Source of the DNA: Flavobacteriaceae bacterium
GTDB lineage: Bacteria; Bacteroidota; Bacteroidia; Flavobacteriales; Flavobacteriaceae
Direction: 5' to 3'
DNA length: 32,000 nucleotides
Assembly (NCBI GenBank): GCA_965224465.1
Contig: OZ245049.1
Location: 2,610,001 to 2,642,000, forward strand
Shown: one piece after another, positions 1,986-26,418 of the stretch
Layout of the letters: the number at the start of each line of letters is the position of its first letter
How positions within the stretch are numbered: the stretch's first letter is position 1
Program-made: the position numbers and the translations under genes
The notes under the pieces: model-generated
What the model saw: only the letters and a program-made list of their open reading frames with translations
Told to the model about the DNA's origin: nothing
Database searches by the model: none

Positions 1986-2095
1986 GCGAAATGTTGATTT
2001 TTTAGACAATGTAAAGTTCCATAAATATTTATTGGTGTGCAATATTCAAAAAAAAAAACTAATTTACAAATGACAAAACCTCAATTACAGCTTAT

Positions 2096-2219
2096 CGCAA
2101 CTAAATTTCCAAGTGATGATTTAGAAAAGGAATTATTTTTCGTTCTCTTTTTCAACAACGCTAGAACCTAAAATAAACTATGTATAGCTGTCATTTTGGA
2201 ATAAAGATGGTGTTATCAT
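2096..2219 (+). repeat. Dispersed intergenic repeat, copy A (short variant)
   Basis: ...aaatttccaagtgatgatttagaaaaggaattatttttcgttct|ctttttcaacaacgctagaac...tatagctgtcattttgga...ggtgttatcat aligns with the copies at 6616, 15129, 15249, 15411, 18611 and 18957. It lacks the 41-nt internal module. About 35 nt further upstream (from about 2059, ctaatttacaaatgac...) also resembles the sequence upstream of copy C, so the 5' boundary is uncertain. Confidence 0.7.
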
Positions 2220-2302
2220 TGAGCAAACTCAATACCTTAAAAAATATTATACCTTAAAAAATATTTTTAAACAATTAACACCCTCAATTCAACTATTTTA
2301 CC

Positions 2303-2310
2303 TAATTTTG
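2303..2310 (+). promoter_or_regulatory. Bacteroidota-type -7 promoter box (TAatTTTG)
   Basis: taattttg matches the TAnnTTTG consensus and lies 23 nt upstream of the ATG at 2333. Confidence 0.45.
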
Positions 2311-2332
2311 CACGCAATTTGAATTACAACAC

Positions 2333-2779
2333 ATGAAGCGCATCAACGAATACAAGAAAATATTTAAGGTAGAAGGAGTTCTCGAATTAAAAGAGCTTAA
2401 GAAAACCTATAGAAATTTGATTAAAGAGTGGCATCCAGATAAATTTACTGACGAAACAAAGAAGGACGAAGCTGGAAAAGTAAGTTTAAAAATTATTGAC
2501 GCCTATCATTTTTTAGTAAGCATTGCTCCTGCCACAAAGGAAGCAAACTTAGATGCTTATGCAAAAACTATTTCAGAATCTCAAGTTGAAGATTTCCACC
2601 ACAAAAGCATGTTGATGGAAGTTACATTTACAGATGGAAACACTTACGAATACTTTGGAGTGAACCAAAAATTATTCAACAAATTTGTAAATGCAAAAAG
2701 CCTATCAAATTTCGGGAAAAGAAAAGTATTTAACACTTTCTTGTATCGAAAATCTAAAAAAGCAACGGCAATAGCCTAA
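2333..2779 (+). CDS. J-domain (DnaJ-like) protein with C-terminal KTSC domain
   Basis: The N-terminus LKELKKTYRNLIKEWHPDKF carries the HPD tripeptide of J domains. The C-terminal part (MLMEVTFTDGNTYEYFGVNQKLFNKFVNAKSLSNFGKRKVF) resembles the KTSC (lysyl-tRNA-synthetase C-terminal-like) domain. Confidence 0.75.
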   Translation: MKRINEYKKIFKVEGVLELKELKKTYRNLIKEWHPDKFTDETKKDEAGKVSLKIIDAYHFLVSIAPATKEANLDAYAKTISESQVEDFHHKSMLMEVTFTDGNTYEYFGVNQKLFNKFVNAKSLSNFGKRKVFNTFLYRKSKKATAIA

Positions 2780-2803
2780 AGTTATTTTTACATAAAACAT
2801 ATA

Positions 2804-2832
2804 AACCGCAAGACATTTCTTGCGGTTTTTTT
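2804..2832 (+). terminator. Rho-independent terminator
   Basis: Stem aaccgcaag / cttgcggtt around a short loop, followed by a T-run (tgcggtttttttt), 25 nt after the stop at 2779. Confidence 0.75.
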
Positions 2833-2913
2833 TATGATTTAAAATGCCACACAACAACAAATAGAAGTTAACGGCACATGATTTAAAAAACCGCCCTCTA
2901 AAACAAGGCAATT

Positions 2914-2939
2914 ATACCAAATACATTTCCAAGTGACAG
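2914..2939 (+). repeat. Dispersed intergenic repeat, 5'-end fragment (copy B)
   Basis: ataccaaatacatttccaagtgacag is nearly identical to the 5' end of the full copies. Similarity is lost downstream. Confidence 0.6.
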
Positions 2940-3079
2940 ATATTCTAGCATTTAGCGAACAATTAGCTGTAAAAATATCCACCTACCCCATAAAAAGACA
3001 CCTTCGTCTAAAAAAACACAACAAAACAACTGTTTAAGATATCTTTACAAAACACGTATCCATCTCTAAATATAGTTAA

Positions 3080-4642
3080 ATGCACAAAAAAATCATCCTT
3101 CTAAGCGCTTTCTTACTTGTTTTATTAAGTTGTTCAACAAAAAGTAAAGAGGCTCCAAAACCCAATATCATATATATTTTAACAGATGATTTAGGCTATG
3201 GAGACATTTCATCCTATAATGAAAACAGCAAAATACAAACACCAAACATAGACAAACTCACAGCAGAAGGAATGCAATTTACTGACGCTCACACCTCATC
3301 ATCGGTATGTACACCTACCAGATACAGCATTCTTACGGGGAGATACAACTGGAGAAGCACTTTAAAAAGCAGTGTTCTTACAGGGAAATCTAAGGCATTG
3401 ATTTCAAAGAACAGAACTACGGTTGCCTCCATGCTACAACAAAAAGGATATGAAACTGCGTTTATAGGAAAATGGCATTTAGGATGGGACTGGGCACTAA
3501 AAGACAGCAGTAGATTTGGAGGATCGGGATGGAACGCCAAAGATTTTGAGAATATCGACTTCTCAAAACCCATTACAAACGGACCAAAAGAACTAGGATT
3601 CAGCTATTCTTACGGACATGCAGGATCTTTAGACATGGCACCTTATGTGTATGTAGAAAACGGAATGGTCACCCAGTACCCAGATAGCATCACCGAGAAC
3701 ACAGGGAAATATACTTGGTGGAGAAAAGGACCAACTTCAAAAGATTTTATACATGATGATGTAACGCCTAACTTTTTTAGACGCTCGTTCGCCTATATAA
3801 AAGAACGCGCATTAGAGAAGAAGCCTTTCTTTTTATATTTAGCATTACCTTCTCCTCACACCCCTATTTTACCCACAAAAGAATGGAAAGGAAAAAGCAA
3901 TCTAAACCCTTATGGTGATTTTGTAATAATGATTGACGCCTACATGGGCATCCTAGAAAAAACAATAAAAGAAGCTGGCATCGAAGCCAACACCCTTGTC
4001 ATATTTACGAGTGATAACGGATGCTCTCCAGCAGCTAAAATAGATGAAATGATAGCAAAAGGACATCACTCTAGCTATATATACCGTGGACACAAAGCTG
4101 ATATTTTTGAAGGAGGACACCGCGTACCCTTTATTGTAAAATGGCCCAACCGCATCGAAAAAAACACACTTTCCAACCAAACCATCTGCACCACAGACTT
4201 TATGGCAACTTGCGCCGAGATAATCAACTACACACTTTCCGACAACGAAGCAGAAGACAGCTTTAGTCTCTTACCCTTGTTTGAACAACAACCCTTAAAC
4301 ACTTTATTCAGAGAAGCCACGGTACACCATTCAATCAACGGGAGTTTTGCCATTAGAAAAGGAGATTGGAAATTGATCTTATGTCCAGATTCAGGCGGAT
4401 GGAGTTTCCCAAGACCAGAAAACAAAAAAGCAATAGATTCCTTGCCAAAATACCAATTGTACAATTTAAAAACTGATCCAGGAGAAAAAGAAAACCTTTG
4501 GACTCCAAAAAATAAAATTGCCAACAATTTACAATCACTACTTAGTAAATACATTACAGAAGGAAGAAGTACTAAGGGAAAACCTCAAAAAAATGACCCG
4601 ATTGACACCGAATGGAAACAAATAAGATTCGTTAAAAACTAA
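3080..4642 (+). CDS. Cys-type (formylglycine-dependent) arylsulfatase, lipoprotein
   Basis: The sulfatase signature is SSSVCTPTRYSILTGR (C-x-P-x-R). Metal-binding motifs are LTDDLGYGD and FTSDNG, with conserved GKWHLG. The N-terminus LLVLLSC has a lipobox. Confidence 0.9.
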   Translation: MHKKIILLSAFLLVLLSCSTKSKEAPKPNIIYILTDDLGYGDISSYNENSKIQTPNIDKLTAEGMQFTDAHTSSSVCTPTRYSILTGRYNWRSTLKSSVLTGKSKALISKNRTTVASMLQQKGYETAFIGKWHLGWDWALKDSSRFGGSGWNAKDFENIDFSKPITNGPKELGFSYSYGHAGSLDMAPYVYVENGMVTQYPDSITENTGKYTWWRKGPTSKDFIHDDVTPNFFRRSFAYIKERALEKKPFFLYLALPSPHTPILPTKEWKGKSNLNPYGDFVIMIDAYMGILEKTIKEAGIEANTLVIFTSDNGCSPAAKIDEMIAKGHHSSYIYRGHKADIFEGGHRVPFIVKWPNRIEKNTLSNQTICTTDFMATCAEIINYTLSDNEAEDSFSLLPLFEQQPLNTLFREATVHHSINGSFAIRKGDWKLILCPDSGGWSFPRPENKKAIDSLPKYQLYNLKTDPGEKENLWTPKNKIANNLQSLLSKYITEGRSTKGKPQKNDPIDTEWKQIRFVKN

Positions 4643-4774
4643 GTCTGGACTGTAAAAGTCATCCACTTGAATCATCAATTTTTTTATACTAATTTTCTAA
4701 AAACATAAAAACAAACATAAAAACGTATATTTGGTAGTAAATTCCTCACCATAACAACAGGAAGACACCTAATA

Positions 4775-5290
4775 ATGACGCAAACAACTCTTTCAAAACA
4801 CCCCTTACATCACCTTTTAGAACAAGATGATTACGAGGCATGGGAATTGAACATAACAAATTTTATAATTGACAAGGAAAGTCAAAAACACCAAGCTTGC
4901 AGTTTTACGATAAACACAGAACCCGTAATTTATAGGCACGCGCATAGCACGCCCAAAAAAGCGGGACAATTTGTTACCTTTTGGAAACGTAATTTACAGG
5001 GAGAAACCTGTCCTTTTTGTGAAACAGACCTTCTAAATTATTTTCTTATCGTTGTAAAAAAGAAAGAAGAAATTGGCTGTTTTATTTTTCCGAAATCAGT
5101 GTTGATAGAAAAAAATATTATTTCAAGTAGTAAAACAACAGGAAAAAGAGGTTTTAGAATCTATCCTCCTTGGGACATCACCACAAGTAAACAGGCTAAA
5201 AAAACACAAGATTGGCAATTGACTTATTTCGTGAAATCTATAAATAAAAAAATGATCCATCACTTTTTAAAACTATATCAACAAATCTAA
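4775..5290 (+). CDS. MepB-family protein
   Basis: 171 aa. KKAGQFVTFWKRN and the overall size and pattern resemble the MepB family. This is recognition by memory only. Confidence 0.55.
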   Translation: MTQTTLSKHPLHHLLEQDDYEAWELNITNFIIDKESQKHQACSFTINTEPVIYRHAHSTPKKAGQFVTFWKRNLQGETCPFCETDLLNYFLIVVKKKEEIGCFIFPKSVLIEKNIISSSKTTGKRGFRIYPPWDITTSKQAKKTQDWQLTYFVKSINKKMIHHFLKLYQQI

Positions 5291-5589
5291 TGTTTATTAT
5301 ATCACTAACATACATCGTTCCTTTAGCAACAGTAGACCTGCACATGGAAGCTCATATTAAGTTTTTAAACGAACAATATACACTAGGAAATTTTCATGCT
5401 TCAGGAAGAAAAACACCAAGAACGGGAGGTGTTATTTTTTCAATGATTAAGGACAGAGAAGAAATGCTCAACATCATAAATAAGGATCCGTTTATATTCC
5501 ACAAGGTTTCCTCTTTTGAATTGATTGAATTTACGCCAAGTAAAACCTGCAATGAACTCTCATACTTACTAGAACAACAAGACAACTAA
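5290..5589 (+). CDS. YciI-like (YCII-related) small protein
   Basis: 99 aa. It shows the pattern H..FL......G....SG......GG........ee......DPF typical of YciI-like proteins. Its start overlaps the upstream stop (TAATG). Confidence 0.6.
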   Translation: MFIISLTYIVPLATVDLHMEAHIKFLNEQYTLGNFHASGRKTPRTGGVIFSMIKDREEMLNIINKDPFIFHKVSSFELIEFTPSKTCNELSYLLEQQDN

Positions 5590-5607
5590 CATTCACCTAG
5601 CTACCAA

Positions 5608-6459
5608 ATGACAAAAACCAACTTTACACGTATCGCGTTAATAGCAGTTACATTTATCAGCTGTAACAAAACACTTAAAAGCACAGATTTTACCCCCGAA
5701 AACAGTTTTACGGAAGGCATTGAAGGCCCCGCAACGGACTCACAAGGAAACATTTATGCGGTGAATTTTAAAACACAAGGAACCATTGGGAAAATCAACC
5801 CTGACGGCACAGCGGCACTTTTTGTAAAACTCCCTAACAAAAGCATCGGAAATGGGATTAGATTTGGCAGTAAAAATCAAATGTTTGTAGCAGATTATGT
5901 AAATCACAACATTCTAGAGATTGACATCATCACAAAAAAAACACAGGTGTTTGCCCATGATTCAACAGTAAACCAACCGAATGATATTGCCATAGCACCT
6001 AACAAAACCCTCTACGCAAGTGACCCGAATTGGACTAACAACACAGGGAAACTTTGGAAAATAACCAAAGACAAAGGTTTTGAACTACTCGAAGATCACA
6101 TGGGAACTACCAATGGAATTGAAGTTAGTAATAATGGAAAAAAATTATACGTCAACGAATCCATTCAACGCAATATCTGGGTCTATGACATTCTAGAAAA
6201 CGGCTCCATTACCAACAAAAAACTCTTTTATAAATTCGAAGATTTCGGACTGGACGGCATGCGTTTTCACCGCAACGGAAATCTATATGTTTGCAGGTAC
6301 GACAAAGGAACAATAGCTGTTTTATCACCACAAGGAGAACTTATAGAGGAACTACAATTAACAGGAAAAAAAGTAAGTAACATCACCTTTAGCCCCGATT
6401 TTAAAACTTGCTACCTAACAATGGCAGACAGAGGATGCTTAGAGATGATAAAACTATAA
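5608..6459 (+). CDS. SMP-30/gluconolactonase/LRE-family beta-propeller lipoprotein
   Basis: Lipobox AVTFISC. Repeated propeller-blade motifs are EGPATDSQGNIYAVN, NGIRFGSKNQMFVADY, PNDIAIAPNKTLYASD, TNGIEVSNNGKKLYVNE and DGMRFHRNGNLYV. Confidence 0.8.
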   Translation: MTKTNFTRIALIAVTFISCNKTLKSTDFTPENSFTEGIEGPATDSQGNIYAVNFKTQGTIGKINPDGTAALFVKLPNKSIGNGIRFGSKNQMFVADYVNHNILEIDIITKKTQVFAHDSTVNQPNDIAIAPNKTLYASDPNWTNNTGKLWKITKDKGFELLEDHMGTTNGIEVSNNGKKLYVNESIQRNIWVYDILENGSITNKKLFYKFEDFGLDGMRFHRNGNLYVCRYDKGTIAVLSPQGELIEELQLTGKKVSNITFSPDFKTCYLTMADRGCLEMIKL

Positions 6460-6615
6460 AACATAAGTCTAGAACAAAAAAACGGGTCAATTTATTTAAT
6501 ATACGGGTTCAAAACGAGTTAAAATATGCTGTTTGAGTTCACAAACACCATTGAATTTTAAAGCACCCGCAAACCAAACTGATTTACAAATACAGGTTTA
6601 TAATTGAAGCCTCTA

Positions 6616-6779
6616 ACATCAAATACATTTTCAAGTAACGACTTAGAAATGGAATTATATTTTGTTTTAACTAGGTGGAAAATGGAAGAATAACCTAAAC
6701 TACCGTTCTATTCTTCAACAACGCTAGACTGTAAAACAAACTATTTATTGCTGTAATTTTGGATTGTAGTTGATATCAT
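6616..6779 (+). repeat. Dispersed intergenic repeat, copy C (long variant)
   Basis: acatcaaatacattttcaagtaacgacttagaaatggaatt...ttttgttttaactaggtggaaaatggaagaataacctaaactaccgttctattcttcaacaacgctagac...ctatttattgctgtaattttggattgtagttgatatcat is collinear with the copies at 15249 and 18611. Confidence 0.75.
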
Positions 6780-6962
6780 TTAGAAGACATTTGTTTTTTA
6801 AAAACAGTCACCCTAATTTTAAATTATCATTAAACACCCTTAAAATCAGTGCCATTCGAATTGTTTCGTGTATTTTTCAAGAGAGCTATAATTCAATCAA
6901 TCGTTTGAATGTAAAATCTAAGAACAAGAATTAGGACACATAAAAAGGCAAAACAACAACAA

Positions 6963-7730
6963 ATGAAACAGAAAACTGACTACTGGAACCCTAAATTATA
7001 CACTGATAAACACGCATTTGTATATGAATACGGAAGTGATTTAATCCAATTACTAAAACCACAAAAACACGAGCGAATTTTAGATTTAGGCTGTGGATCG
7101 GGTCAGTTAACCGAAGCCATCAACAAGCTAGCGCACGAGGTAATAGGCATAGACAAATCACCAGAAATGATCGCCGACGCCAAAAAAAGCTACCCAACAC
7201 TCCATTTTCAGGTAAGCGATGCTGCTAATTTTGAGTTTAAACAACCCTTTGATGCAATTTTTTCGAATGCTACCTTGCATTGGGTATTGGATTATAAAGC
7301 AGCTATAGACTGCATGTATCAACAGCTAAAACCAGGAGGAAGGATTGTGCTAGAATTTGGAGGAAAAGACAATGTAGCATCCATTACAGCAGCATTGAGA
7401 ACCTCCTTAGCAGCCAGAGGATACCTTGCACAATCACAACTAGAACAATGGTTTTTTCCAAGCCTTGGCCACTACACATCTGCCTTAGAATCACAAGGAT
7501 TTACAGTTAACCTTGCCCATTATTATGAACGTCCTACGGCATTGGCAACTGCCCAAACAGGAATTAAAGACTGGCTGACAATGTTTGCTTCCACATTTTT
7601 TAGCGATGTAGCCACAAAAGATATAATATCCATTAAAAACGAAGTACAAGAAGCATTAAAACCAATACTTTTAAAAGATGACACTTGGTATGCGGATTAT
7701 AAGAGAATTCGGATCGTTGCCATTAAATAA
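6963..7730 (+). CDS. Class I SAM-dependent methyltransferase (trans-aconitate methyltransferase-like)
   Basis: SAM-binding motif I is ILDLGCGSGQLT. Post-I is GIDKSPEMI and motif II/III is FDAIFSNATLHWV...LKPGGRIVLE. Confidence 0.85.
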   Translation: MKQKTDYWNPKLYTDKHAFVYEYGSDLIQLLKPQKHERILDLGCGSGQLTEAINKLAHEVIGIDKSPEMIADAKKSYPTLHFQVSDAANFEFKQPFDAIFSNATLHWVLDYKAAIDCMYQQLKPGGRIVLEFGGKDNVASITAALRTSLAARGYLAQSQLEQWFFPSLGHYTSALESQGFTVNLAHYYERPTALATAQTGIKDWLTMFASTFFSDVATKDIISIKNEVQEALKPILLKDDTWYADYKRIRIVAIK

Positions 7731-7737
7731 TCCTCCT

Positions 7738-8304
7738 ATGAAAAACTACCTACAGCGCTTTCAGATATTAAATGATACAGAAATCGCAGCACTATGCGAG
7801 ATCGCAATTCCGAAAACACTTGAAAAAGGAGCCTTTTTAAACAAAGAAGGGGATGTTTGCACATCGGTCGCATTTATAACTTCGGGAATATTAAGAAGCT
7901 ATTACCACGCGAGTTCTTCTGAAGAAATCACGTACTGTTTTTCTTTTAAAAACGGATTTATCAATGCCTATTCTTCTTTTATAACTCAGGAAAAATCTAT
8001 GGAAAATATCCAAGCCTTGACCCAAGTTTCCCTGCTGTTAATTCCAAAGCATCAAATAGATCGTCTTGAAAAATCCAGCCCTAATTGGATGAAATTTCAG
8101 AAAACAGTCGCTGAGAACAATTACATCAAACTCGAAAGAAGGATTTTTATGCTTCAAAAAGAAAAAGCAGAAGTCCGTTACCAAGACTTACTCACAAACA
8201 ATCCAGAAATCATACAACATATCCCCCTTCATTATATCGCCTCTTACTTAGGAATTAGCGAAAGGCACTTAAGTAGGATTCGAAAGGGAATTTATTTAGA
8301 ATAA
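7738..8304 (+). CDS. Crp/Fnr-family transcriptional regulator
   Basis: It has a cNMP-binding-like N-terminal half (FLNKEGDVCTSVAFITSGILRSYY) and a C-terminal HTH (IASYLGISERHLSRIRK). I chose the ATG at 7738 (MKNYLQRF). The longer ORF start at 7678 overlaps the methyltransferase gene by 53 nt. Confidence 0.8.
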   Translation: MKNYLQRFQILNDTEIAALCEIAIPKTLEKGAFLNKEGDVCTSVAFITSGILRSYYHASSSEEITYCFSFKNGFINAYSSFITQEKSMENIQALTQVSLLLIPKHQIDRLEKSSPNWMKFQKTVAENNYIKLERRIFMLQKEKAEVRYQDLLTNNPEIIQHIPLHYIASYLGISERHLSRIRKGIYLE

Positions 8305-8370
8305 GACATATGTCCTTTTTAAAACTCTAAAATCTCTTTTCCTTTACAGTTACTTTTAAAGACAGAGAAA

Positions 8371-8950
8371 ATGAAAGAAATAGTGATTATAAACGGGCAT
8401 CCCAACAAAAAGAGTTTTAACTACGCCTTAGCATCCGCTTACACAAAAGGAGCCCTCAGCAGTGATGCCCATATTACACATATCAATATTAGCGAATTAA
8501 AATTCAATCCTAATTTAGAACATGGTTATCAACAGCGGACACCACTAGAACCAGACCTAGAAATAGCGATAGAAAAAATACAAAAAGCCCAACATATTGT
8601 CTGGGTCTACCCTACTTGGTGGACAGGTTTCCCCGCCATTATGAAAGGTTTTATAGACCGTACTTTTTTACCTGGTATTTTTATATCAACCCATCCAAGG
8701 AAAACCATTCCCTAAACAACTACTAAAAGGAAAAACAGCCAGAATCATTGTCACTTCAGACACGCCTCGCTGGTATGACTATTTGATATTAAAAAGCCCT
8801 GGTATACGACAATTAAAAAAAGGAGTCTTAGGTTTTTGTGGGGTAAAATCAATAAAGGTTACTTATGTGGGACCGCTTAAGGGGGCAAAAAAAGAATATC
8901 GCGAGCAGTATCTTCAAAAAGTAAACAAACTAGGTAGACTCTTAAAATAA
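8371..8950 (+). pseudogene. Flavodoxin-like-fold NAD(P)H dehydrogenase (quinone), interrupted by a +1 frameshift
   Basis: Frame 1 (8371..8715) encodes the N-terminal 114 aa (IINGHPNKKSFNYALA...WVYPTWWTGFPAIMKGFIDRTFLPG) and then stops. The expected continuation reads in the +1 frame from about 8690 to the stop at 8948-8950 (YQPIQGKPFPKQLLKGKTARIIVTSDTPRWYDYL...GFCGVKSIKVTYVGPL...). The switch lies at or near the T-run ggtatttttata (about 8680-8691). Confidence 0.75.
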
Positions 8951-9208
8951 AGAAACTCTAAAATAGTATTACTAACAATTTCGATTGAACTAATGATGTT
9001 TGCAAGGCATAAAAACACTCCTCGAAGTTGAGTTAAAAGACATTAAGGAAGGAAATAGGAAGTGCTAATTCACAAAAACACTTCACTCTCTCATAAAGAA
9101 GACAAAAAGAATGAAAAAACTTACTCGATCACATTTTTCAATAATAGCATGAATCCTAATACATTGAAAAAACTATTAAAAGAATAAAACCGTTTTAAAC
9201 AAAAAAAA

Positions 9209-9230
9209 CCGAGCTCTAAAGCTCGGTTTT
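9209..9230. terminator. Bidirectional rho-independent terminator
   Basis: Stem ccgagc / gctcgg with loop tctaaa, flanked by an A-run (9201-9208) and a T-run (9227-9230). It sits 23 nt beyond the 3' end of the minus-strand pruA gene and also downstream of the plus-strand gene ending at 8950. Confidence 0.75.
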
Positions 9231-9252
9231 TCTATATAATAAATTCTTAAAA

Positions 9253-10881: not shown

Positions 10882-10918
10882 AGTATCTGTTTTAGTTTTT
10901 CTTGTTAAATTTGTAAGA

Positions 10919-10950
10919 CAAAGTTACAAAACCGATTTGACTTACTCAAA
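10919..10950 (-). promoter_or_regulatory. Candidate Bacteroidota promoter for pruA (-33 TTTG / -7 TAacTTTG)
   Basis: On the minus strand, TTTG lies at 10950..10947. A 20-nt spacer follows, then TAACTTTG at 10926..10919, 38 nt upstream of the pruA ATG at 10881. Confidence 0.45.
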
Positions 10951-10985
10951 ATTAATCTAATACTCAATATCCAAATACCTATATT

Positions 10986-11690
10986 ATGTGTACAGTAACT
11001 TTTTTAAGCTTAGAAAATCAGGGATTTATTTTAACATCTAGCCGAGATGAACGCAAGGAACGAAAAACAACTCCTCCTGCAACCTATCAAGAACTCGGCA
11101 GCCAACTCACCTACCCAAAAGATGAATTAGCAGGCGGCACTTGGATAGGCGTAAGTAACCGAAAAAGAGTGGTTTGCGTTTTAAATGGCGCTTTTAAAAA
11201 ACACGTACGCAAAAATTCTTATCTAAAAAGTCGTGGAGTTTTGGCAAAAGAAATTCTAAAAATGGAGGTCTTAAATAAGGAGATCCCATTCCTAAAACTG
11301 GAAGGTATCGAACCTTTTACAATGGTAATAGTTGACTGGAATGATGGACTCAAATTACTAGAATTAACCTGGAATGAAACTCATAAAACATTCCGTGAAC
11401 TAAAACTAGAAGCGACCATTTGGTCCTCCGCAACACTATACTCAGAGGACATTAAAAAACAACGCGTAGATTGGTTTAAAAACTGGACAGACAAGCACAC
11501 AAACATTCAAGATTCTATTCTTGCATTTCATCATTCAGAAATTGGAGATAAAACACAATCCATTCTTATGAAAAGAAATACAATAGAAACCGTAAGCATT
11601 ACCTCTATCCAGAAGAACACTACCGGTATTTCAATCATTTACAAAGATTTATCACGTAAAAAAACACATACACTTAACATAGATTCATAA
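10986..11690 (+). CDS. NRDE-family (DUF833/TANGO2-like) protein
   Basis: The N-terminus MCT followed by a hydrophobic strand, SSRDE and GGTWIGV are family hallmarks. Size is 234 aa. Confidence 0.7.
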   Translation: MCTVTFLSLENQGFILTSSRDERKERKTTPPATYQELGSQLTYPKDELAGGTWIGVSNRKRVVCVLNGAFKKHVRKNSYLKSRGVLAKEILKMEVLNKEIPFLKLEGIEPFTMVIVDWNDGLKLLELTWNETHKTFRELKLEATIWSSATLYSEDIKKQRVDWFKNWTDKHTNIQDSILAFHHSEIGDKTQSILMKRNTIETVSITSIQKNTTGISIIYKDLSRKKTHTLNIDS

Positions 11691-11708
11691 TTATAAACAT
11701 ACTGATTG

Positions 11709-12770
11709 CTATGAAAATAAAAAAGAAACCACAGTAATAAAGACAAATCCGACAGAAGTCAAAATAATATACATACCATTCAGTATGAAAAATTTAATTA
11801 ACGTCTTAAAAAACGACTGTTTATAAAAGCCTCTCAATGCCAAAAACAGATAAACAGAAAACAGGATAAAAGCCAAACTCCATTGACTTTCTGTTCCAAA
11901 AACTGAATCGACACAAAAGAAAATTATAAACAACAAAAAGAGTACGGTTTGCGTATTAAACACAAACACCAAATGTTCCATATAGGAATACCTTTTACGA
12001 AAATAGACCAACCAAACGAAGCATGTAAAAATGGGGAGCAGGAAAAATAAGGAAATCGAAATTTTGGAAACAATAGCATTAAAAAAAACCTTTAAATTAT
12101 CTTCATCATCCCCTACACTATAAATCATAATTTTATGATACATAGCCTTGTTAAAAAAACTAGGTTCTACCTGTAAACTATCCATTATAGAAACCACACT
12201 TAGGTCTCTATGCCTTCTAAACAGACGATCGGCTTGCTTGATTTTTTTTAAAAAATAGATGGACTCTATTTGATCTGATTCGGAGTCTAATACAGGAGTA
12301 TTATTTTGATCAAATATAGAATCTGTTTCGTGCAAAAAACCTTCCATAATTGTATTCCCCTTTTTAAAACCCTTTTGTACATCAATGCTACTCCTCCCAT
12401 TCCTTTGTTCAAATGAAGTGTTTAATACGCCATATTTAGACGATAATCCAATCATTAAAAAATAAATAATAGACATTAAGAAATAAAACCGAAACGGATT
12501 CACATACCGTTTTCGTTTCCCTTGAATATACTCCAAAGAGACCTCTCCTGGACTAAATAATAGAGGCTTTAAAGTCCTCCAAAGTGTAGAATCATAAGAA
12601 ATAAACCCTGCCAAAAACTCTGTAAAAAAATGAGAAACTCTCAGTTTACGAACATCATTTTTTTGACCACAACTCGCACAAAAGTTTTCATCCCCTTTTA
12701 ACGGCATCTCACAATTAAGGCATTCCAAGCCCTTTAGACTTTTATTTTTAAAAAGCATTGTTTTTTTCAT
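11709..12770 (-). CDS. DUF3667-like zinc-ribbon membrane protein
   Basis: N-terminal zinc ribbon CLNCEMPLKGDENFCASCGQKN. It has the conserved block LWRTLKPLLFSPGEVSLEYIQGKRKRYVNPFRFYF and several C-terminal transmembrane segments. Confidence 0.7.
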   Translation of the reverse strand: MKKTMLFKNKSLKGLECLNCEMPLKGDENFCASCGQKNDVRKLRVSHFFTEFLAGFISYDSTLWRTLKPLLFSPGEVSLEYIQGKRKRYVNPFRFYFLMSIIYFLMIGLSSKYGVLNTSFEQRNGRSSIDVQKGFKKGNTIMEGFLHETDSIFDQNNTPVLDSESDQIESIYFLKKIKQADRLFRRHRDLSVVSIMDSLQVEPSFFNKAMYHKIMIYSVGDDEDNLKVFFNAIVSKISISLFFLLPIFTCFVWLVYFRKRYSYMEHLVFVFNTQTVLFLLFIIFFCVDSVFGTESQWSLAFILFSVYLFLALRGFYKQSFFKTLIKFFILNGMYIILTSVGFVFITVVSFLFS

Positions 12771-12817
12771 GACTGTAAAATGATGTTTTTTTGCGGGTAA
12801 AAATCAGAAGCCTCGTT

Positions 12818-13204
12818 TTAATTAAGTGCCATTGCTACGGTTAATTGAAAATTAGGAATATACACCTTAAAAGATGTTGATGTTGTGAAATTCACCATCG
12901 TATAAAAACCTTTCATTGCCCCAACAGGAGAAACAAGCATACAAAACGAACTATAGCTATAACTTTCTCCAGGCTTTAAAACAGGCTTTTCTCCAATCAC
13001 TCCAGGACCTTCTACAATCTCAATATTATTCAAAGAATCAAAAATAGTCCAATTACGCGCTTGCAACTGCACTACATCATTACTCGTATTTTCTATAGTA
13101 ATTGTATAACTAAACACATAATACAACCGATAATCCCTGTACGAGGTTCCGTCAAAAATAGTCTGAACCGATATTTTGATTCCATTTGTTACTTGCTGAG
13201 TCAT
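12818..13204 (-). CDS. apaG: ApaG (DUF525) protein
   Basis: 128 aa. Y.FSYTITIEN.S...VQL..R.W.I.D......V.G.GV.G..P.L.PGESY.Y.S matches the ApaG pattern. Confidence 0.85.
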   Translation of the reverse strand: MTQQVTNGIKISVQTIFDGTSYRDYRLYYVFSYTITIENTSNDVVQLQARNWTIFDSLNNIEIVEGPGVIGEKPVLKPGESYSYSSFCMLVSPVGAMKGFYTMVNFTTSTSFKVYIPNFQLTVAMALN

Positions 13205-13639
13205 ATAAGTAGCATTAATACTTCAAAGATACAAAAATATAGGATTGGTTCCGCTTTAGAACGTTCAATTAGTGACTAAAGGTAGCATTCGAATCCTTTT
13301 TATTGCTATTTCAACACCATCAGCATTAAAAAATTAAATACTACATAGTCTAATTATAGAATAAATTCTTTTTTATTAAATCTTACACCGAACCAAAAAA
13401 GACGTTTTATAAGCAGGTAAAAAACCTTAAATTAGCAACACCCAACAAATTCAAACAGTTCCTATATGACAAACCCAAACAGTGTTAAGCTCAACATCCA
13501 CTCGAGCACTTCCTTTTGCACTAGTTATCATCAAAAACAACCAGTTATATAAAGGATTCACTAAAGCGATACTTACACAACAAATTCACCCGCCTTTTAA
13601 CCCTAAAACAAATTTAAAACAGCTAAAATTTCACAACAA

Positions 13640-15025
13640 ATGATTCCAACAAAAAACACCAAGCGAGCAACACGTTTTCTTCAACATTTAACAGGACTTT
13701 GCTTCTCCATTGTACTACTCGTAGTATCGGGATGTTCAAAAGACGACGTAGCACCAGCAAGCATGTCCATTTCCCCTCCAATAAAACAACTCAATTTCTC
13801 CCCCACCATGCACGGAGAAAAATCTACATCTAAAAACATCACGTTAAAATATGCACATTTAAGTGATGCAATTATAATTACAGCCAGTTCAAATTTTGAA
13901 GTATCAATAGATGATACAAATTTTCACCAAAGCCTTTCACTTTCAAAAGCAGAATTACCAGCAAATTCTATTAAAATTTATGTTCGTTTTTCCCCAGAAC
14001 TAAACTTGATAGAGACAGCAATAGGGACCTTAACTATTAGTTCTAAAACTACAGAGAGCATCACACTAAAACTAGAAGGCATCTCCACCCCTAAAACATA
14101 CAACTACACAACATTCAAAAACAAACGCCTTGCATTTGGAAATGGACACAACCAATCTGCTATAGATCAATTTACATTACACGAAGACTTAACAGAAATC
14201 AAAACCATTAAAATGTTTGTACAACTAACCTGTCCAGATGGAGGATGTGACCAATGGGATGTTTATGCCCATGTCCTAATCAAAGAGCAATCTTCAGGAG
14301 ATTGGTATGAACTAGGACGCTTTATCACTCCGTATTGGAATGACAACAGTCAATTAGAACGTGGTTTTGAATTTGATGTCACTGATTTCAAATCGCTTTT
14401 AAACAAAAAAGTAGAACTAAAAATATTCACCGAATGCTGGAATCCAAAAGGCTATAATGTAAGTGTAGATTTTGATTATATAAAAGGAACACCAGACTAC
14501 AGCTATTCCTCCATAACCAAAGTACTCCAATACAACAAAAACTCAATAAGCGGAGTGCCCTACGGAAAAAAACACACCCTAGATTTAACAAAATCCATAA
14601 GCATTCCCTCCAATGCAAAAGCAACTAGCTTACGCACCATAATTTCTGGTTGGGGACACGCAAAACCGTATGACGAAGGAAATAGAGGCTGTGCAGAATG
14701 GTGTTTTAGAACGCATTATATAAAAATCAACAACCAAAAAACTTTCAAACACTATATGGGACCAATAGGTTGCGGAAGCAATCCCGTAAACAATCAAAAC
14801 CCTGGCAACTGGAAAGGAGAACGCGCAGGATGGTGCCCAGGAATGGAAGTACCAACACGTATTGACATCTTAGAGAACGCAATGGCAGGCAGTACTTTTG
14901 ACTTTGAATACGACTTTAAATATTGGAGAAACAACGATCAAAACGGAGAAGCTTACAACGCTATATCAACTTATATTATTGTAAAGAGTAACACGCCTAT
15001 TGACAAAGCTACCGTTACAAACTAA
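13640..15025 (+). CDS. Peptide-N4-(N-acetyl-beta-glucosaminyl)asparagine amidase F (PNGase F) homolog with extra N-terminal domain; predicted surface lipoprotein
   Basis: Residues about 150-461 align, as I recall it, along the whole mature Elizabethkingia PNGase F. Matching blocks are VKTIKMF, CD.WD.YA.V, W.E.GRFITPYW, DVTDFKSLL, GTPDY.YS, QYNK.SI.GVPYGK.HTL, ISGWGHAKPYD, RGCAEWCFRTH, RAGWCPGM.VPTRID and KSNTPI. The positions of catalytic D60, E118 and E206 are conserved (CDQWD, FTECW, CAEW). Lipobox VVSGC (Cys32) is followed by SKDD. Confidence 0.9.
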   Translation: MIPTKNTKRATRFLQHLTGLCFSIVLLVVSGCSKDDVAPASMSISPPIKQLNFSPTMHGEKSTSKNITLKYAHLSDAIIITASSNFEVSIDDTNFHQSLSLSKAELPANSIKIYVRFSPELNLIETAIGTLTISSKTTESITLKLEGISTPKTYNYTTFKNKRLAFGNGHNQSAIDQFTLHEDLTEIKTIKMFVQLTCPDGGCDQWDVYAHVLIKEQSSGDWYELGRFITPYWNDNSQLERGFEFDVTDFKSLLNKKVELKIFTECWNPKGYNVSVDFDYIKGTPDYSYSSITKVLQYNKNSISGVPYGKKHTLDLTKSISIPSNAKATSLRTIISGWGHAKPYDEGNRGCAEWCFRTHYIKINNQKTFKHYMGPIGCGSNPVNNQNPGNWKGERAGWCPGMEVPTRIDILENAMAGSTFDFEYDFKYWRNNDQNGEAYNAISTYIIVKSNTPIDKATVTN

Positions 15026-15043
15026 TTCTAAAAAACACAATAT

Positions 15044-15081
15044 AAAGGCAGTTTTTATACATTTATAAATACTGCCTTTTT
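15044..15081 (+). terminator. Rho-independent terminator
   Basis: aaaggcagtttttata / tataaatactgccttt form a 16-bp stem with 1 mismatch and a 4-nt loop, ending in ttttt. It lies 19 nt after the stop at 15025. Confidence 0.75.
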
Positions 15082-15128
15082 AAACGCTTAATTCTTTAAT
15101 TCTCTCTAAGCATCTCCAACATCCAATC

Positions 15129-15248
15129 ATACCAAATACATTTCCAAGTGGCAATTTAGAAATGGAATTTTTTTTGTTCTATTTTCCAACAACGCTAGAA
15201 CAAAAAACAAACTATTTATATCGATCATTTTGGTTTTTAATTGGTGTC
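15129..15248 (+). repeat. Dispersed intergenic repeat, copy D (short variant), first unit of a tandem triplet
   Basis: 120 bp, ataccaaatacatttccaagtggcaatttagaaatggaattttttttgttct|attttccaacaacgctagaacaaaaaacaaactatttatatcgatcattttggtttttaattggtgtc. It abuts copy E with no spacer. Confidence 0.85.
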
Positions 15249-15410
15249 ATACCAAATACATTACCAAGTGACGGTTTAGAAATGGAATTATTTTACGTTC
15301 TAGCTAGGCGGAAAATCTAAGGATAGCCTTAGCTATCGTTCTATTTTCCAACAACGTTAAAACGAAAAACAAACTATTTATATCGGTCATTTTGGATTTT
15401 AATTGGTGTC
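15249..15410 (+). repeat. Dispersed intergenic repeat, copy E (long variant), second unit
   Basis: 162 bp. Same ends as D, plus the 41-nt module agctaggcggaaaatctaaggatagccttagctatcgttct. Confidence 0.9.
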
Positions 15411-15570
15411 ATACCAAATACATTACCAAGTGACGGTTTAGAAATAGAATTATTTTTTGTTCTAGCTAGGCGGAAAATCTAAGGATAGCCATAGCTATCG
15501 TTCTATTTTCCAACAACGTTAAAACGAAAAACAAACTATTTATATCGGTCATTTTGGATTTTAATTGGTA
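15411..15570 (+). repeat. Dispersed intergenic repeat, copy F (long variant), third unit
   Basis: About 160 bp, nearly identical to copy E with only a few substitutions (for example gaaatAgaatt, ttttTTgttc, agccAtagc). Confidence 0.9.
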
Positions 15571-15758
15571 TACGCACATATAAGTAGTGAAATCCCTGAA
15601 AACTACACACTATATCGTTATAGAAACTAAAAAAGATTAATATTTCTATTAAATACACCCTTATATATAAGTATAATGCCTAATTTTAAGACCACTAATA
15701 TAGACAACAAACTCCGTATTAATAATACGGCAATGCACGTCTATCAACATGATTTTTT

Positions 15759-18611
15759 ATGAAAAAAATAAACCTACTTCTCTGTTTAATTTTACTATTT
15801 TCTTGCCAAACAAAAAAAGTAATAACAGACACATCAAAAACTACATCACCCACAGAAGATGTCAAGCCAAGTAAAGACATCCCGCTAGACAAAAACATTA
15901 CTAAAGGAGTACTTAGCAATGGACTTACCTATTACATTCAACACAATGCAAAACCAGAAAACAAACTTGAATTGCGATTGATTGTAAATGCAGGATCTAT
16001 ATTAGAAGACGATGACCAAAGAGGGTTGGCGCATTTTATGGAACACATGAATTTTAATGGAACCAAAAACTTTAAGAAAAACGAATTGGTAGACTACCTA
16101 CAAAGTATAGGTGTAAAATTTGGAGCCCACTTAAATGCTTATACTAGTTTTGATCAAACAGTGTATATTTTACCCATACCTAGTGACGATCCTGAAAAAC
16201 TAGAAAAAGGATTTCAAATATTAGAAGACTGGGCTCACAATGCACTCCTAACAGAAAGCGACATTGATTCAGAAAGAGGTGTTGTTTTAGAAGAACTTCG
16301 CTTAGGAACAGGTGCCAATGAACGCATGTCACAAAAATATTTACCAAAAATAATGTATGGTTCTAAATATGCAGACAGACTTCCTATAGGTAAGAAAGCT
16401 ATTATAGAAAATTTCAATTACGAAAGTTTAATTCGTTTTTACAAGGATTGGTACCGTCCAGATTTAATGGCAGTAGTAGCCGTAGGAGATGTAGATGTAG
16501 CTGTTTTAGAGGCTAAAATAAAAGAACATTTCGGAAGAATCCCTAAGGCAATTGAACCAAAAAAAAGAGAAACTTTTAGCCTTAAAAATCACGACGAAAC
16601 ACTCATTTGTATCGCTTCAGACAAAGAAGCTCCATATGCCGTAACAAGCATCTATTACAAAGACGAACAAGACAGCAAAGCATTAATTAGCACAAATGAC
16701 TACAGAAACTCTTTGATAGAAGGTTTGTTTAGTCAAATGATAAGCAATAGACTCGACGAATTAAAAAACAGTCCGACCCCTCCATTCCTGTTTGCATCTG
16801 CAAGTCACAGCAACACGATGGCAAGAAACAGAAAAGCCTATCAAGGTTTTGCGGTATCTGGACAAAAAGAACAACTAAAAGCACTCCAAACTTTACTAGA
16901 GGAAAACGAACGCGTAAAACAATTTGGATTTACCCAAGGCGAATTAGATAGAGCAAAGAAAAGAACCCTTGCCGCCATGGATCTCGCTTTCAAAAACAAA
17001 GACAAAACAACTTCTGCACGTATTGCGGGACAGTTTGTAAACAATTTCCTTTCACAAGAAAATTCACCAGGAATCACTTGGAAAAACGATTTTTGTAAAC
17101 GCACCTTCCCTGGTATTACACTAAAGGACGTGAGCTCTCTAATTCATAAATACCTCAAAAAAAACAATAGAGTTATTGTACTAACAGGACCTATTGTACC
17201 TGAAGAAGAACAAATTACAGTTGCACAAATTCAGAAAACTTTAGACAATAGTACCACAGCAACCCTAAAGGCATACGAAGACAAAGAAGTTGCCAGTTCA
17301 CTGATTTCTAAAGCACCAAAACCAGGAACCATCATCTCAAAATCAAGCAACAGTAAATTAGGAACGCAAAGCTTTACCCTAAGCAACGGACTTAAAGTAG
17401 TGTATAAAAAAACTGATTTTAAAAACGATCAAATCCTTATGGAAGGTGTAAGCCTAGGAGGACAATCCCTCTATTCCGACGAAGAGTACCACAGCATAGG
17501 ATTTGCTAACGGCGCACTTACTGAAGCAGGTATCAATGGATTTTCTAAAATAGATTTAAACAAAATGATGGCAGGTAAAATAGCCAGAGTGAGACCATAT
17601 ACAGGAGGAATTACAGAAGGAGTTTCTGGAAGTAGTACTCCTAAAGACCTTGAAACCATGTTTCAATTAACCTATTTGTATTTTACCAAATTAAACAAAG
17701 ACGACAAAACATACCAAGGGTTTATCAATAAACAAAAAAGTGTAATTCCGAGACTTCTATCCAGTCCACAAATGTATTTCAGAAAAGAACTGGGCGATTT
17801 TTTAAACCAAGGAAATCCGCGATATTTAGGATTCCCTACGTTAAAATCCCTAGATCAAAGCAATTATGATCTCGCCTTTAAAAAATACAACGAACGTTTT
17901 TCTAATGCTGGAGATTTTGTATTCTACTTTGTAGGAACCATCAACGAAAAACAACTGATCCATTTAGCGACTACCTATTTGGGAAGTCTTCCGGGAAACA
18001 ATATCAAAGAAACGTATAAAATACCTAGTTTCCGTTCTTTAAAAGGCATGCATAAAAAAGTAATAGCAAAAGGACAAGACCCAAAAAGTAGTGTTCAAAT
18101 AATATTCCAAGGAGAAACAGTTTATGACAAATATGAAGCTGCCTCGATAAATGCATTAGGAAAGATTTTAACCATAAAACTGATTGAAAACTTAAGAGAA
18201 AAAGAAGCAGGAGTGTATGGCGCAAACGCAGGAGGTTTTATATCTAAAGTACCCTATGGGAAATACAATTTCAGAATTTCTTTCCCTTGTGGACCAGAAA
18301 ATGTGGATATGTTAACCGCAGCAGCTTTAAAAGAATTAAAAAACATTATTGATAATGGGCCTTCTGACAAGGATTTAAACAAGGTAAAAGAAGCAAAACT
18401 ACTTACATACAAAGAAAACATAAAGAAAAATTCGTATTGGATAAATTCTTTTAAATCTTCGTATATCAACGATAGAGACCCGGCATTGATCCTTGAAAAA
18501 ACCAAAGCAATTAATTGGTTGAATAAAAAATCCATTCAAGATGTTGCTAAGAAATACCTTAATGGAGATTATATTTTAGCCATTCACAATCCCGACAAAA
18601 AAGAAAAGTAA
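15759..18611 (+). CDS. M16-family (pitrilysin/insulinase-like) zinc peptidase, double-length, lipoprotein
   Basis: The inverted zinc motif HxxEH is present in GLAHFMEHMNFNG, with a downstream E in VVLEE. At 950 aa it is consistent with fused active and inactive M16 halves. Lipobox LLFSC. Confidence 0.9.
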   Translation: MKKINLLLCLILLFSCQTKKVITDTSKTTSPTEDVKPSKDIPLDKNITKGVLSNGLTYYIQHNAKPENKLELRLIVNAGSILEDDDQRGLAHFMEHMNFNGTKNFKKNELVDYLQSIGVKFGAHLNAYTSFDQTVYILPIPSDDPEKLEKGFQILEDWAHNALLTESDIDSERGVVLEELRLGTGANERMSQKYLPKIMYGSKYADRLPIGKKAIIENFNYESLIRFYKDWYRPDLMAVVAVGDVDVAVLEAKIKEHFGRIPKAIEPKKRETFSLKNHDETLICIASDKEAPYAVTSIYYKDEQDSKALISTNDYRNSLIEGLFSQMISNRLDELKNSPTPPFLFASASHSNTMARNRKAYQGFAVSGQKEQLKALQTLLEENERVKQFGFTQGELDRAKKRTLAAMDLAFKNKDKTTSARIAGQFVNNFLSQENSPGITWKNDFCKRTFPGITLKDVSSLIHKYLKKNNRVIVLTGPIVPEEEQITVAQIQKTLDNSTTATLKAYEDKEVASSLISKAPKPGTIISKSSNSKLGTQSFTLSNGLKVVYKKTDFKNDQILMEGVSLGGQSLYSDEEYHSIGFANGALTEAGINGFSKIDLNKMMAGKIARVRPYTGGITEGVSGSSTPKDLETMFQLTYLYFTKLNKDDKTYQGFINKQKSVIPRLLSSPQMYFRKELGDFLNQGNPRYLGFPTLKSLDQSNYDLAFKKYNERFSNAGDFVFYFVGTINEKQLIHLATTYLGSLPGNNIKETYKIPSFRSLKGMHKKVIAKGQDPKSSVQIIFQGETVYDKYEAASINALGKILTIKLIENLREKEAGVYGANAGGFISKVPYGKYNFRISFPCGPENVDMLTAAALKELKNIIDNGPSDKDLNKVKEAKLLTYKENIKKNSYWINSFKSSYINDRDPALILEKTKAINWLNKKSIQDVAKKYLNGDYILAIHNPDKKEK

Positions 18612-18775
18612 TACCAAATACAATTCCGAATAAAGGTTTAAAAATGGAATAAGTTTTTTGTTTTAGCTAGGAGAAAAACGGAAGGATAGCACCCGCTATC
18701 GTTCTGTTTTCCAACAACGATAGAACGTATAAAAAACTATTTATAGCTGTCATTTTGGATTGTAATTGGTATCAT
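18611..18775 (+). repeat. Dispersed intergenic repeat, copy G (long variant)
   Basis: It starts with ataccaaataca on the last base of the M16 stop codon and ends tgtaattggtatcat. The ends form an imperfect terminal inverted repeat (ataccaaAtacaat / ataccaaTtacaat). Confidence 0.85.
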
Positions 18776-18816
18776 ACTCCTTTTTAAAATCTTATTATTT
18801 ATTAAGAAAACAAAAC

Positions 18817-18851
18817 GGCACTTACAAAAATGTAAGTGCCATTTTATTTTT
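18817..18851 (+). terminator. Rho-independent terminator between convergent genes
   Basis: Perfect 10-bp stem ggcacttaca / tgtaagtgcc with loop aaaa, followed by attttattttt. Confidence 0.8.
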
Positions 18852-18956
18852 GATCTCCTCTGATCTTCAATAATTAGCTCATCGTCCCCTCCAACTTTAA
18901 GGGATACTAATAATTTAAACGTAAGCAATTCGAAAAATAATGTTATTTGCAACCCG

Positions 18957-19119
18957 TACAAACCATACATTTCCAAGTAAAAGTATAGCAGTGGAATTAT
19001 TTTTTGTTTTAGTTAGCTGAAAAATGGATGGAAAGCCTTAGTTAACGTTCTGTTTTTTAACAACACTAGAACGTAAAATAGACTATTTATAGCTGTTATT
19101 TCGGATTGTAATTGGGTAT
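18957..19119 (+). repeat. Dispersed intergenic repeat, copy H (long, diverged)
   Basis: tacaaaccatacatttccaagtaaaag...ttttttgttttagttagctgaaaaatggatggaaagccttagttaacgttctgttttttaacaacactagaacgtaaaatagactatttatagctgttatttcggattgtaattgggtat. It ends 2 nt before the stop codon of the minus-strand gene at 19122. Confidence 0.8.
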
Positions 19120-19121
19120 AA

Positions 19122-20378: not shown

Positions 20379-20520
20379 GCGATTGTATTTTAAATAGAAT
20401 AAGGGGCAGCCATTAGGCTAAAATAAGGTTTAATTTTGATAAAACGAACTAAACCCTCCTAAGCGTACTATTGTTGCGTAAATAAACCAAAAATAGTACC
20501 AAAAAGAGCTAATAAATTCA

Positions 20521-20528
20521 TATTTTTG
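20521..20528 (+). promoter_or_regulatory. Candidate -7 promoter box (TAttTTTG) for the nqr operon
   Basis: tatttttg matches TAnnTTTG and lies 35 nt upstream of the nqrA ATG. I saw no clean -33 TTTG. Confidence 0.35.
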
Positions 20529-20562
20529 CAAAGTTTTTTAGGACTTAAAAATTATTTTAAAT

Positions 20563-23054: not shown

Positions 23055-23056
23055 TT

Positions 23057-23752
23057 ATGGATAGAAATAGCAATGCATATACGTTTCTTTTTGCCATCAT
23101 TATGGTAATTGTACTAGGAGCATCTTTAGCTTTTATTGCAGAAAACACCAAAGAGGCAAGAAAACGTAACGTAGAATTAGAGAAAAAACAAAACATACTT
23201 TCCGCAATTGGAGTGAATGTAGACAGAGATCAAGCAGAAATTGATTTTGATTCATATATCAAAAAGAAGCTTACTGTAAAAACTGATGGAAGTATAGACA
23301 CCAAGGTTGATGCTTTTTACATCTCATTAAAAAAAGAAGTAAAAAGACCTGCAGCGGATCAAAGTTTACCACTTTATATCGCAGAAAAAGATGGCAAAAC
23401 CTATTATATCGTTCCTTTATACGGCGCTGGATTATGGGATGCTATTTGGGGGTATATAGGATTAGATGTTGATGAAAACACAATTATTGGTGCTGTATTT
23501 GATCACAAAGGAGAGACCGCAGGTTTAGGAGCCGAAATCAACCAAAGTTGGTTTGAAGACCAATTTATTGGAGACAAGATCATGGACAAAAACGGAAAAT
23601 TTGTTTCTGTAAAAGCCATTAAAGGAGGTGCACAAATAGATGATGTACACGGGGTGGATGCTATCTCTGGAGGAACCATAACTTCTGACGGTGTTACAAA
23701 CATGGTTCAAGAAAGATTATCAAAATATATACCCTATTTTAAAAATAACTAA
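23057..23752 (+). CDS. nqrC: Na+-NQR subunit C
   Basis: Single N-terminal TM segment, an FMN_bind-type domain and the motif [10 protein letters not shown] (covalent-FMN threonine context). Confidence 0.9.
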
Positions 23753-23754
23753 TC

Positions 23755-24426: not shown

Positions 24427-24435
24427 GAAAAAGAT

Positions 24436-25053: not shown

Positions 25054-25069
25054 TTAGAAAAATAAGATT

Positions 25070-26362: not shown

Positions 26363-26389
26363 GAATCTTAGAAAACATAGTTTTAAAAA

Positions 26390-26418
26390 CCGATGCTCCA
26401 GTAGCATCGGTTTTTTTT
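26390..26418 (+). terminator. Rho-independent terminator of the nqr operon
   Basis: Stem ccgatgct / agcatcgg with loop ccagt, followed by tttttttt. It lies 28 nt after the nqrF stop. Confidence 0.85.

Follow-up and report, generated by a model that had tools for sequence, protein, structure and literature searches.

What is the short, hairpin-forming repeat that recurs between the genes of a 32,000-nucleotide stretch of a Flavobacteriaceae bacterium (assembly GCA_965224465.1, contig OZ245049.1, positions 2,610,001 to 2,642,000; hereafter the window)? A sequence-only reading of this DNA had left three answers side by side: a non-autonomous transposon, an element resembling the repetitive extragenic palindromes (REP) of other bacteria, or a family of small structured RNAs. 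We believe the first of these is very probably right, and that the repeats are a family of MITEs (miniature inverted-repeat transposable elements) with a 3-bp TNA target-site duplication, best explained as an ordinary kind of bacterial repeat and not as a new RNA family. Inverted repeats at the ends, the TNA duplication, nested copies, internal deletion derivatives and empty sites all speak for the transposon; the RNA-level reading is not supported, and the REP-like one fails.

The repeat family is real. Its core pattern, GTTCTNTTYTYYAACAACRNTARA, matches the plus strand of the window seven times against 0.01 matches expected from dinucleotide shuffles, two other conserved blocks match five to six times each where none is expected, and a direct-repeat search of the window returns families of five to eight collinear copies at the places where the repeats had originally been noticed. 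A profile hidden Markov model (HMM) built from 17 copies and used with nhmmer recovers all seven full copies of the window, with E-values from 1e-22 to 1e-49. Reading the limits of the element from TACC on the left to GGTA on the right, we count these seven full copies (117-162 nt) and three further fragments (Table 1). The full copies fall into two size classes, one of ~118 nt (copies A and D) and one of ~160 nt (copies C, E, F, G and H). As the sequence-only reading had it, the seven full copies all lie on the plus strand, truncated copy J lies on the minus strand, and every copy is strictly intergenic and without coding capacity; no open reading frame (ORF) of at least 80 amino acids overlaps any copy (57-162 nt).

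The anatomy of the repeat is that of a small mobile element. In the aligned copies, homology breaks off abruptly at TACC (left) and GGTA (right), and these boundaries coincide with imperfect terminal inverted repeats of ~23 bp (TACCAAWTACAWT...GGTA). The left end reads 5' TACCAAWTACATTTCCAAGTGAC and the right end GTCATTTTGGATTGTAATTGGTA 3', or in brief TACCAAWTACATTTCC ... GGATTGTAATTGGTA; when the left end, TACCAAATACATTTCCAAGTGAC, is set against the reverse complement of the right end, TACCAATTACAATCCAAAATGAC, ~20 of 23 positions match, and this is true across copies. The interior is largely palindromic, the internal pairing arms seen earlier being as real as the terminal repeats, so that either strand folds as a long rod with a minimum free energy of -23 to -48 kcal/mol and z-scores down to -5.8. 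The core between the arms had been called invariant, which it is not: in the window copies it diverges from the consensus by 17%, compared with 12-17% for the ends, arms and insert, and its only fixed positions are GTTCT..TT.T..AACAAC..TA.A. Since the core diverges as much as the other segments, it appears to be under no special constraint. The shorter forms are internal deletions that keep the ends. In the ~118-nt form, 42 nt between two GTTCT repeats are missing, a ~60-nt form reflects loss between two CCATTT repeats, and a 57-nt mini derivative in the Flavobacteriaceae metagenome-assembled genome (MAG) NORP150 (locus L001, 4306-4366) has only the two ends left, with TAA on either side.

Evidence for transposition is found immediately outside these ends. 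On either side, the three nucleotides beyond TACC...GGTA read T-N-A, with the same middle base at left and right, giving the pairs TAA/TAA, TTA/TTA and TCA/TCA. Left and right triplets are identical in 13 of 20 copies or, counting independent events, in 11 of 18 (permutation p=0.003); for copies with TNA on both sides, the figure is 11 of 14 (p=0.0007). An extended inverted repeat would instead give complementary pairs, TAA with TTA for example, and no such pair occurs among the flanks of these copies. Because the triplets match and are never complementary, they bear the signature of a 3-bp target-site duplication; the duplication that the sequence-only reading proposed to look for can now be given a length and a target, in 11 of 18 independent insertions. 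A 5-bp duplication, in which the element would run from ACC to GGT, was also considered and rejected, the outer positions of the 5-mers being unmatched between left and right, and the T and A beside ACC and GGT being constant and complementary.

Insertions of the element into itself can be read in the same way. At two NORP150 loci (L001, 4986-5308; L013, 3884-4206) a whole copy lies in the central loop of another copy, with TAA/TAA around the inner copy, TAA/TAA around the outer copy, and different surrounding DNA at the two loci. Taking out the inner copy together with one TAA leaves a 16-nt loop, the length found in the uninterrupted paralogues at L004 and L007. The resulting MITE-in-MITE composite (~323 bp) is the same at these two unrelated loci; either it moved as a whole, or the element's loop has been a target repeatedly. 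Stop codons have likewise been hit, TAA or TTA having twice been used as the duplicated target where it is also a stop: at window position 18609-18611 (copy G), and at L002 5540-5542, where an ORF on the minus strand has the right-hand TTA as its stop codon.

Within the window, copies D, E and F are parted by single TCA triplets, and TCA also precedes D. Copies E and F are 96% identical, against 74-82% for the other window pairs, and D and E end in GGTG where F ends in GGTA. Copies E and F probably arose from a 162-bp tandem duplication. The simplest history we can infer would begin with two adjacent insertions, the short D and the long F, having one common TCA target, and would continue with a 162-bp duplication through unequal exchange at the 3' ends, where D and F are similar. 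This group excepted, the window copies are old, as their 74-82% identity indicates. The NORP150 copies are 92-96% alike, and the family was therefore active there at a later time.

The distribution of the family argues in the same direction. Confinement to one region, the case that the sequence-only reading held would reduce the repeats to local duplications, is not what is seen: a scan of the core pattern against one genome per GTDB species finds the family in NORP150 (seven loci), in NORP129 (three loci) and on a single contig assigned to the bin Labilibaculum NORP351, the three remaining hits being chance matches within genes. The NORP MAGs come from North Pond, and the NORP351 contig is from the same assembly; at least two other genomes thus carry the family, at unrelated loci. 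No member was found in JGI metagenomes, IMG/VR or the PLSDB plasmids (0 matches to the left end and six chance matches to the right end in the metagenome scans, 0 in the viral scan, and no blastn match among plasmids), which points to a narrow distribution. The copy on the contig binned as Labilibaculum sp. NORP351 (L008) shows 92-94% identity to those of NORP150; since Labilibaculum is a member of another order, mis-binning is more likely than horizontal transfer. In addition, four of the ten MAG copies (L004, L006, L007 and L011) lie within ~300 nt of the end of the stored locus, probably because such repeats break short-read assemblies, in which case copy numbers in these MAGs are underestimated.

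A comparison with a syntenic ENA scaffold (L014) adds empty sites to this picture. Its M16 peptidase is 78% identical in amino acid sequence to that of the window, and its gene order is that of window positions 10986-27108: TANGO2, DUF3667, DUF525, N-glycanase, M16, type IX secretion system (T9SS) plug, nqrA-F and response regulator. The spacer from the M16 stop codon to the convergent T9SS-plug gene measures 168 bp in L014 and 510 bp in the window. L014 keeps the terminator hairpin, and the extra DNA of the window is made up of copy G, between stop codon and terminator, and copy H, between terminator and convergent gene. An HMM search of L014 and L015 finds no copy anywhere. Both M16 orthologues are 950 amino acids long, and the insertion of copy G thus kept the reading frame and the stop. 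Presence and absence of the element at corresponding sites can therefore be seen in two settings: copies G and H are absent at the L014 locus, and the uninterrupted paralogues serve as empty sites for the L001 and L013 nests. A possible relic at the D-E-F site of L014, picked out by eye from 13 of 16 terminal-repeat positions and a AAACTATTTGTA block, was not counted, its alignment to copy D being no better than shuffles, 49 of 300 of which attain its score.

Several observations nonetheless weigh against a MITE origin. Inside the window only copies A, D and E have matching flanks, and those of C, F, G and H differ; the non-matching flanks fit old, decayed insertions, and the window taken alone makes a weaker case. 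L014 stands at roughly genus-level divergence, and its empty sites are drawn from spacer length, the conserved terminator and the coding ends, not from a base-perfect alignment of an empty site. For the source genome, the copies are those of a 32-kb window in a 5.24-Mb contig. All seven full window copies point one way, a pattern not predicted by simple random insertion, although the independent events number only five (two-sided p ~0.06), since D-E-F is a single array. Finally, the only transposase encoded in the window is of the IS30 family (HTH_38 and rve domains), and the terminal repeat of this one IS30 copy, AATTCAAGTCACAAACGCAACTTTT, is unrelated to the MITE ends, so that the element was rejected as a partner. 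The autonomous element with the same terminal inverted repeats that the sequence-only reading envisaged was met neither in the window nor in ~120 kb of related loci, JGI metagenomes, IMG/VR or plasmids, and a regular-expression search of the related loci for solitary MITE-type end pairs flanking an ORF returned only MITE copies and chance matches inside ORFs.

How, then, do the alternatives fare? The repeats might be structured small RNAs or cis-acting RNA elements, such as stabilisers or terminators in 3' untranslated regions (3'UTRs), whose hairpins are under selection at the RNA level and whose mobility is secondary or absent. Each copy does fold as a long rod, with z-scores to -5.8 on the plus strand, and the plus strand is the more stable one for copies G and H; copy G lies in the 3'UTR of the M16 peptidase, with the stop codon upstream and an intrinsic terminator (18817-18850) downstream, and the common orientation of the full window copies would suit transcribed elements as well. 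In the middle of the long form, GATAGCnnnnGCTATC and the T-run after it also make a weak terminator-like hairpin on both strands. However, the minus strand of E and F folds almost equally well, as a DNA palindrome should, about half of the copies at the NORP loci are antisense to both neighbouring genes, and the core of the window copies is no better conserved than the remainder. Rfam gives no match at the gathering threshold across the whole window; at E<=10 the D-F array attracts only sub-threshold eukaryotic miRNA hairpins, chance matches of the kind that any long hairpin will draw. Nor does the predicted pairing show covariation above shuffled controls. RNAalifold on 17 copies yields a consensus of -3.7 kcal/mol with no compensatory pairs; in the 52-pair rod 89.0% of cells pair, compared with 88.7% when the 3' partners are shuffled among sequences; the covariation score of 0.101 (0.096 in shuffles) is reached by 91 of 500 shuffles; and five pairs have changed on both sides, against 4.6 in the shuffled controls. 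Pairing at the level of shuffles indicates inherited sequence and not a maintained structure, and RNA genes do not show target-site duplications or nested copies. Orientation, which the sequence-only reading found compatible with a function in RNA, survives as co-orientation of the window copies but not as a property of the family, which is mixed at the NORP loci (p ~0.06 for the window). Overall, we consider an RNA-level origin very unlikely.

A REP/REPIN-like element moved by a RAYT (an IS200/IS605-type Y1 transposase), or a PATE-like derivative of IS200/IS605 elements, would insert as a single strand at a fixed motif, and would share with the present family an intergenic position, a palindromic build, a length of ~60-160 nt and head-to-tail clusters like D-E-F; the uniform orientation in the window could then mirror a replication-strand bias. 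Yet the flanking triplet varies (TAA, TTA, TCA), and its left and right instances covary copy by copy, as they would after duplication at insertion and not at a fixed cleavage motif. Moreover, the inverted repeats lie at the very ends and are not hairpins in a subterminal position, and the window holds no Y1 transposase or RAYT ORF. The REP-like reading fails because REP/REPIN elements make no target-site duplications, and it strikes us as highly improbable. Local segmental or tandem duplication of one intergenic sequence, with no transposition at all, could account for the 162-bp period of the D-E-F array and for the 96% identity of E and F. It does not account for unrelated genes flanking the copies at five separate window sites, or for sharp copy boundaries that fall on the inverted repeats, and it is already refuted by the dispersal of the family, which at least two other genomes carry at unrelated loci; its probability is negligible.

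For the MITE family, a general pathway of insertion can be proposed, the mechanism being inferred from a sequence pattern that is itself observed. A transposase supplied in trans would bind both ends and insert the element at T-N-A, usually TAA or TTA, by a 3-bp staggered cut, and repair would leave TNA duplicated on both sides. Such sites include stop codons and would be frequent in AT-rich spacers, and insertions inside genes would be removed by selection, which together would explain why all copies are intergenic. Since the target includes stop codons, copies could come to lie exactly on stops, as copy G and the L002 copy do, the stop being kept by the duplication. And since each insertion would recreate TNA beside the element, new copies could enter beside or inside old ones, as in the D-E-F array and the NORP150 nests. 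Judging from these sequences, our best guess for the mobilising enzyme is a DDE transposase of the IS5/PIF-Harbinger type, which we rank first because of the 3-bp T(N/W)A duplication. IS30- and IS3-type enzymes, whose duplications measure 2-3 bp and 3-5 bp, respectively, are alternatives.

Table 1. Copies and fragments of the repeat family, and the insertion sequence, in the window (positions count from the first nucleotide of the window).
Feature	Position	Strand	Description
Copy A	2095-2212	+	Short form, 118 nt; flanks TTA (2092-2094) / TTA (2213-2215)
Solo 5' terminal fragment	2915-2939	+	TACCAAATACATTTCCAAGTGAC, 22/22 match; TTA before; weak in nhmmer
Copy C	6617-6775	+	Long form, 159 nt, diverged; flanks TAA / TCA
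Copy D	15130-15246	+	Short form; starts head-to-tail array; TCA at 15127-15129, common TCA at 15247-15249
Copy E	15250-15408	+	Long form; 96% identity with F; lone TCA on each side (15247-15249, 15409-15411)
Copy F	15412-15570	+	Long form; closes array; right flank TAC
Copy G	18612-18771	+	Long form; left flank TAA (18609-18611) is the M16 peptidase stop codon
Copy H	18957-19118	+	Long form, most diverged; right flank TAA (19119-19121)
Decayed mini derivative	26435-26474	+	5' arm joined to right end ...TGTATTTGGTA, then TTA; weak, nhmmer E=0.11 only (HMM match 26438-26473)
IS30-family insertion sequence	27404-28520	-	1117 bp; 25-bp terminal inverted repeats AATTCAAGTCACAAACGCAACTTTT; transposase ORF 27427-28431, 334 aa
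Copy J	28526-28599	-	Truncated central and 3' part; HMM positions 63-134, E=1e-7

Among known systems, the Correia elements (CREE) of Neisseria offer a close structural parallel. These are intergenic MITEs of ~100-160 bp, bounded by terminal inverted repeats of ~25 bp, that duplicate a short AT-rich target; they occur in many copies, fold as a long hairpin, and come in two size classes through a ~50-bp internal deletion. They are documented as promoters, RNase III sites and terminators, and no cognate transposase is known for them. The present family resembles them in size, intergenic position, long inverted repeats, hairpin and two size classes by internal deletion. It differs in duplicating TNA (3 bp) where Correia elements duplicate TA (2 bp), in belonging to another host phylum, and in showing no sequence relationship to them. 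Bacterial IS5-family ends usually begin with GG or GA, whereas those of the present family begin with TACC. Duplications of 3 bp (TWA/TNA/ANT) are characteristic of the PIF-Harbinger/IS5 ('PHIS') superfamily (PMC4482050), and in its T(N/W)A duplication, as in being small, AT-rich, palindromic and non-autonomous, the family is like the Tourist-type MITEs of that group. Tourist and PIF elements, however, are eukaryotic and the present family is bacterial, and the link to IS5 is drawn from the target duplication. Within Bacteroidota, Porphyromonas gingivalis carries MITEs (BrickBuilt, MITE239/293/464/700) whose terminal inverted repeats are common to resident IS5-family elements (PMC4596501). Like the present repeats they are non-autonomous and intergenic, but their terminal inverted repeats, GAGACCTTTGCA, are unrelated to those described here, and they are longer, some with internal tandem repeats, and have irregular target duplications. 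A computational MITE catalogue lists tens of thousands of Bacteroidota clusters, Flavobacterium included, most of them genus-specific (NAR 2024, PMC11602168), a picture that the present family fits.

Further features of the copies and of the window deserve brief mention. The centre of the long form recurs as the weak terminator-like hairpin with its T-run (6-bp stem, both strands) at 15322-15337, 15484-15499 and 18685-18700; it is a possible side effect of the element and not evidence of function. No full match to a Bacteroidota-type promoter (TTTG, 17-23 nt, TAnnTTTG) lies within the copies, the nearest being one -7 box in copy C, and a role as an outward-facing promoter was dropped. Copy A occupies the divergent spacer between a hydrolase gene (minus strand) and a DnaJ/KTSC gene (plus strand), and the right-flank TAA of copy H adjoins the stop codon (19122-19124) of the convergent T9SS-plug gene. 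The IS30-family element has different flanking triplets (CTG and TAA) and ends 5 nt from truncated copy J, suggesting that it inserted and that adjoining DNA was then deleted. That the IS30 element had split copy J was not supported, the HMM alignment not extending over the junction once the insertion sequence was spliced out.

Elsewhere in the window, the G+C content of which is 33-36%, a gene for a flavodoxin-like protein or FMN reductase (8371-8950) has apparent frameshifts, the Pfam profile matching at positions 2-110 of 198 and the C-terminal part lying in ORF 8783-8950; it is probably a pseudogene. The segment 29015-31466, in which G+C falls to 0.28, encodes an Hcp/TssD protein of 231 amino acids with a C-terminal extension of ~100 amino acids, then a protein of 444 amino acids that has the zinc-protease motif HEIGHALGLTH and no Pfam match, then a 144-amino-acid protein, and resembles a type VI secretion effector/immunity module. 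A search of the window for tRNA and tmRNA came up empty. The M16 peptidase of the window is ~61% identical to Kordia proteins and 100% identical to one encoded on a 5.24-Mb contig.

These relationships allow a more ambitious proposal, one that we regard as unlikely when all of its parts are taken jointly: that an undescribed Kordia-related flavobacterium has undergone an exceptionally dense MITE expansion, driven by a TNA-targeting transposase uncharacterised in Bacteroidota, and that some of the copies have been co-opted. If this were true, the density of seven full copies per 32 kb would correspond to several hundred copies, or to more than 1000, across the 5.24-Mb genome. Co-option seems possible because copies lie on stop codons or in 3'UTRs and carry a bidirectional terminator-like hairpin, and such copies might act as insulators between convergent genes or as 3'UTR stabilisers.

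Regardless of whether any copy has acquired a function, a MITE origin would class this conspicuous, hairpin-forming intergenic repeat as selfish mobile DNA instead of a new regulatory RNA, so that its mis-annotation can be avoided. The repeats probably disrupt short-read assembly of related MAGs. The family would also provide a clean bacterial case of 3-bp TNA targeting, in which stop codons are hit and yet preserved, and in which targeting of the element by its own kind gives rise to arrays and nests. In this context, it may be of use both as a lineage marker and as a handle on the transposase responsible.

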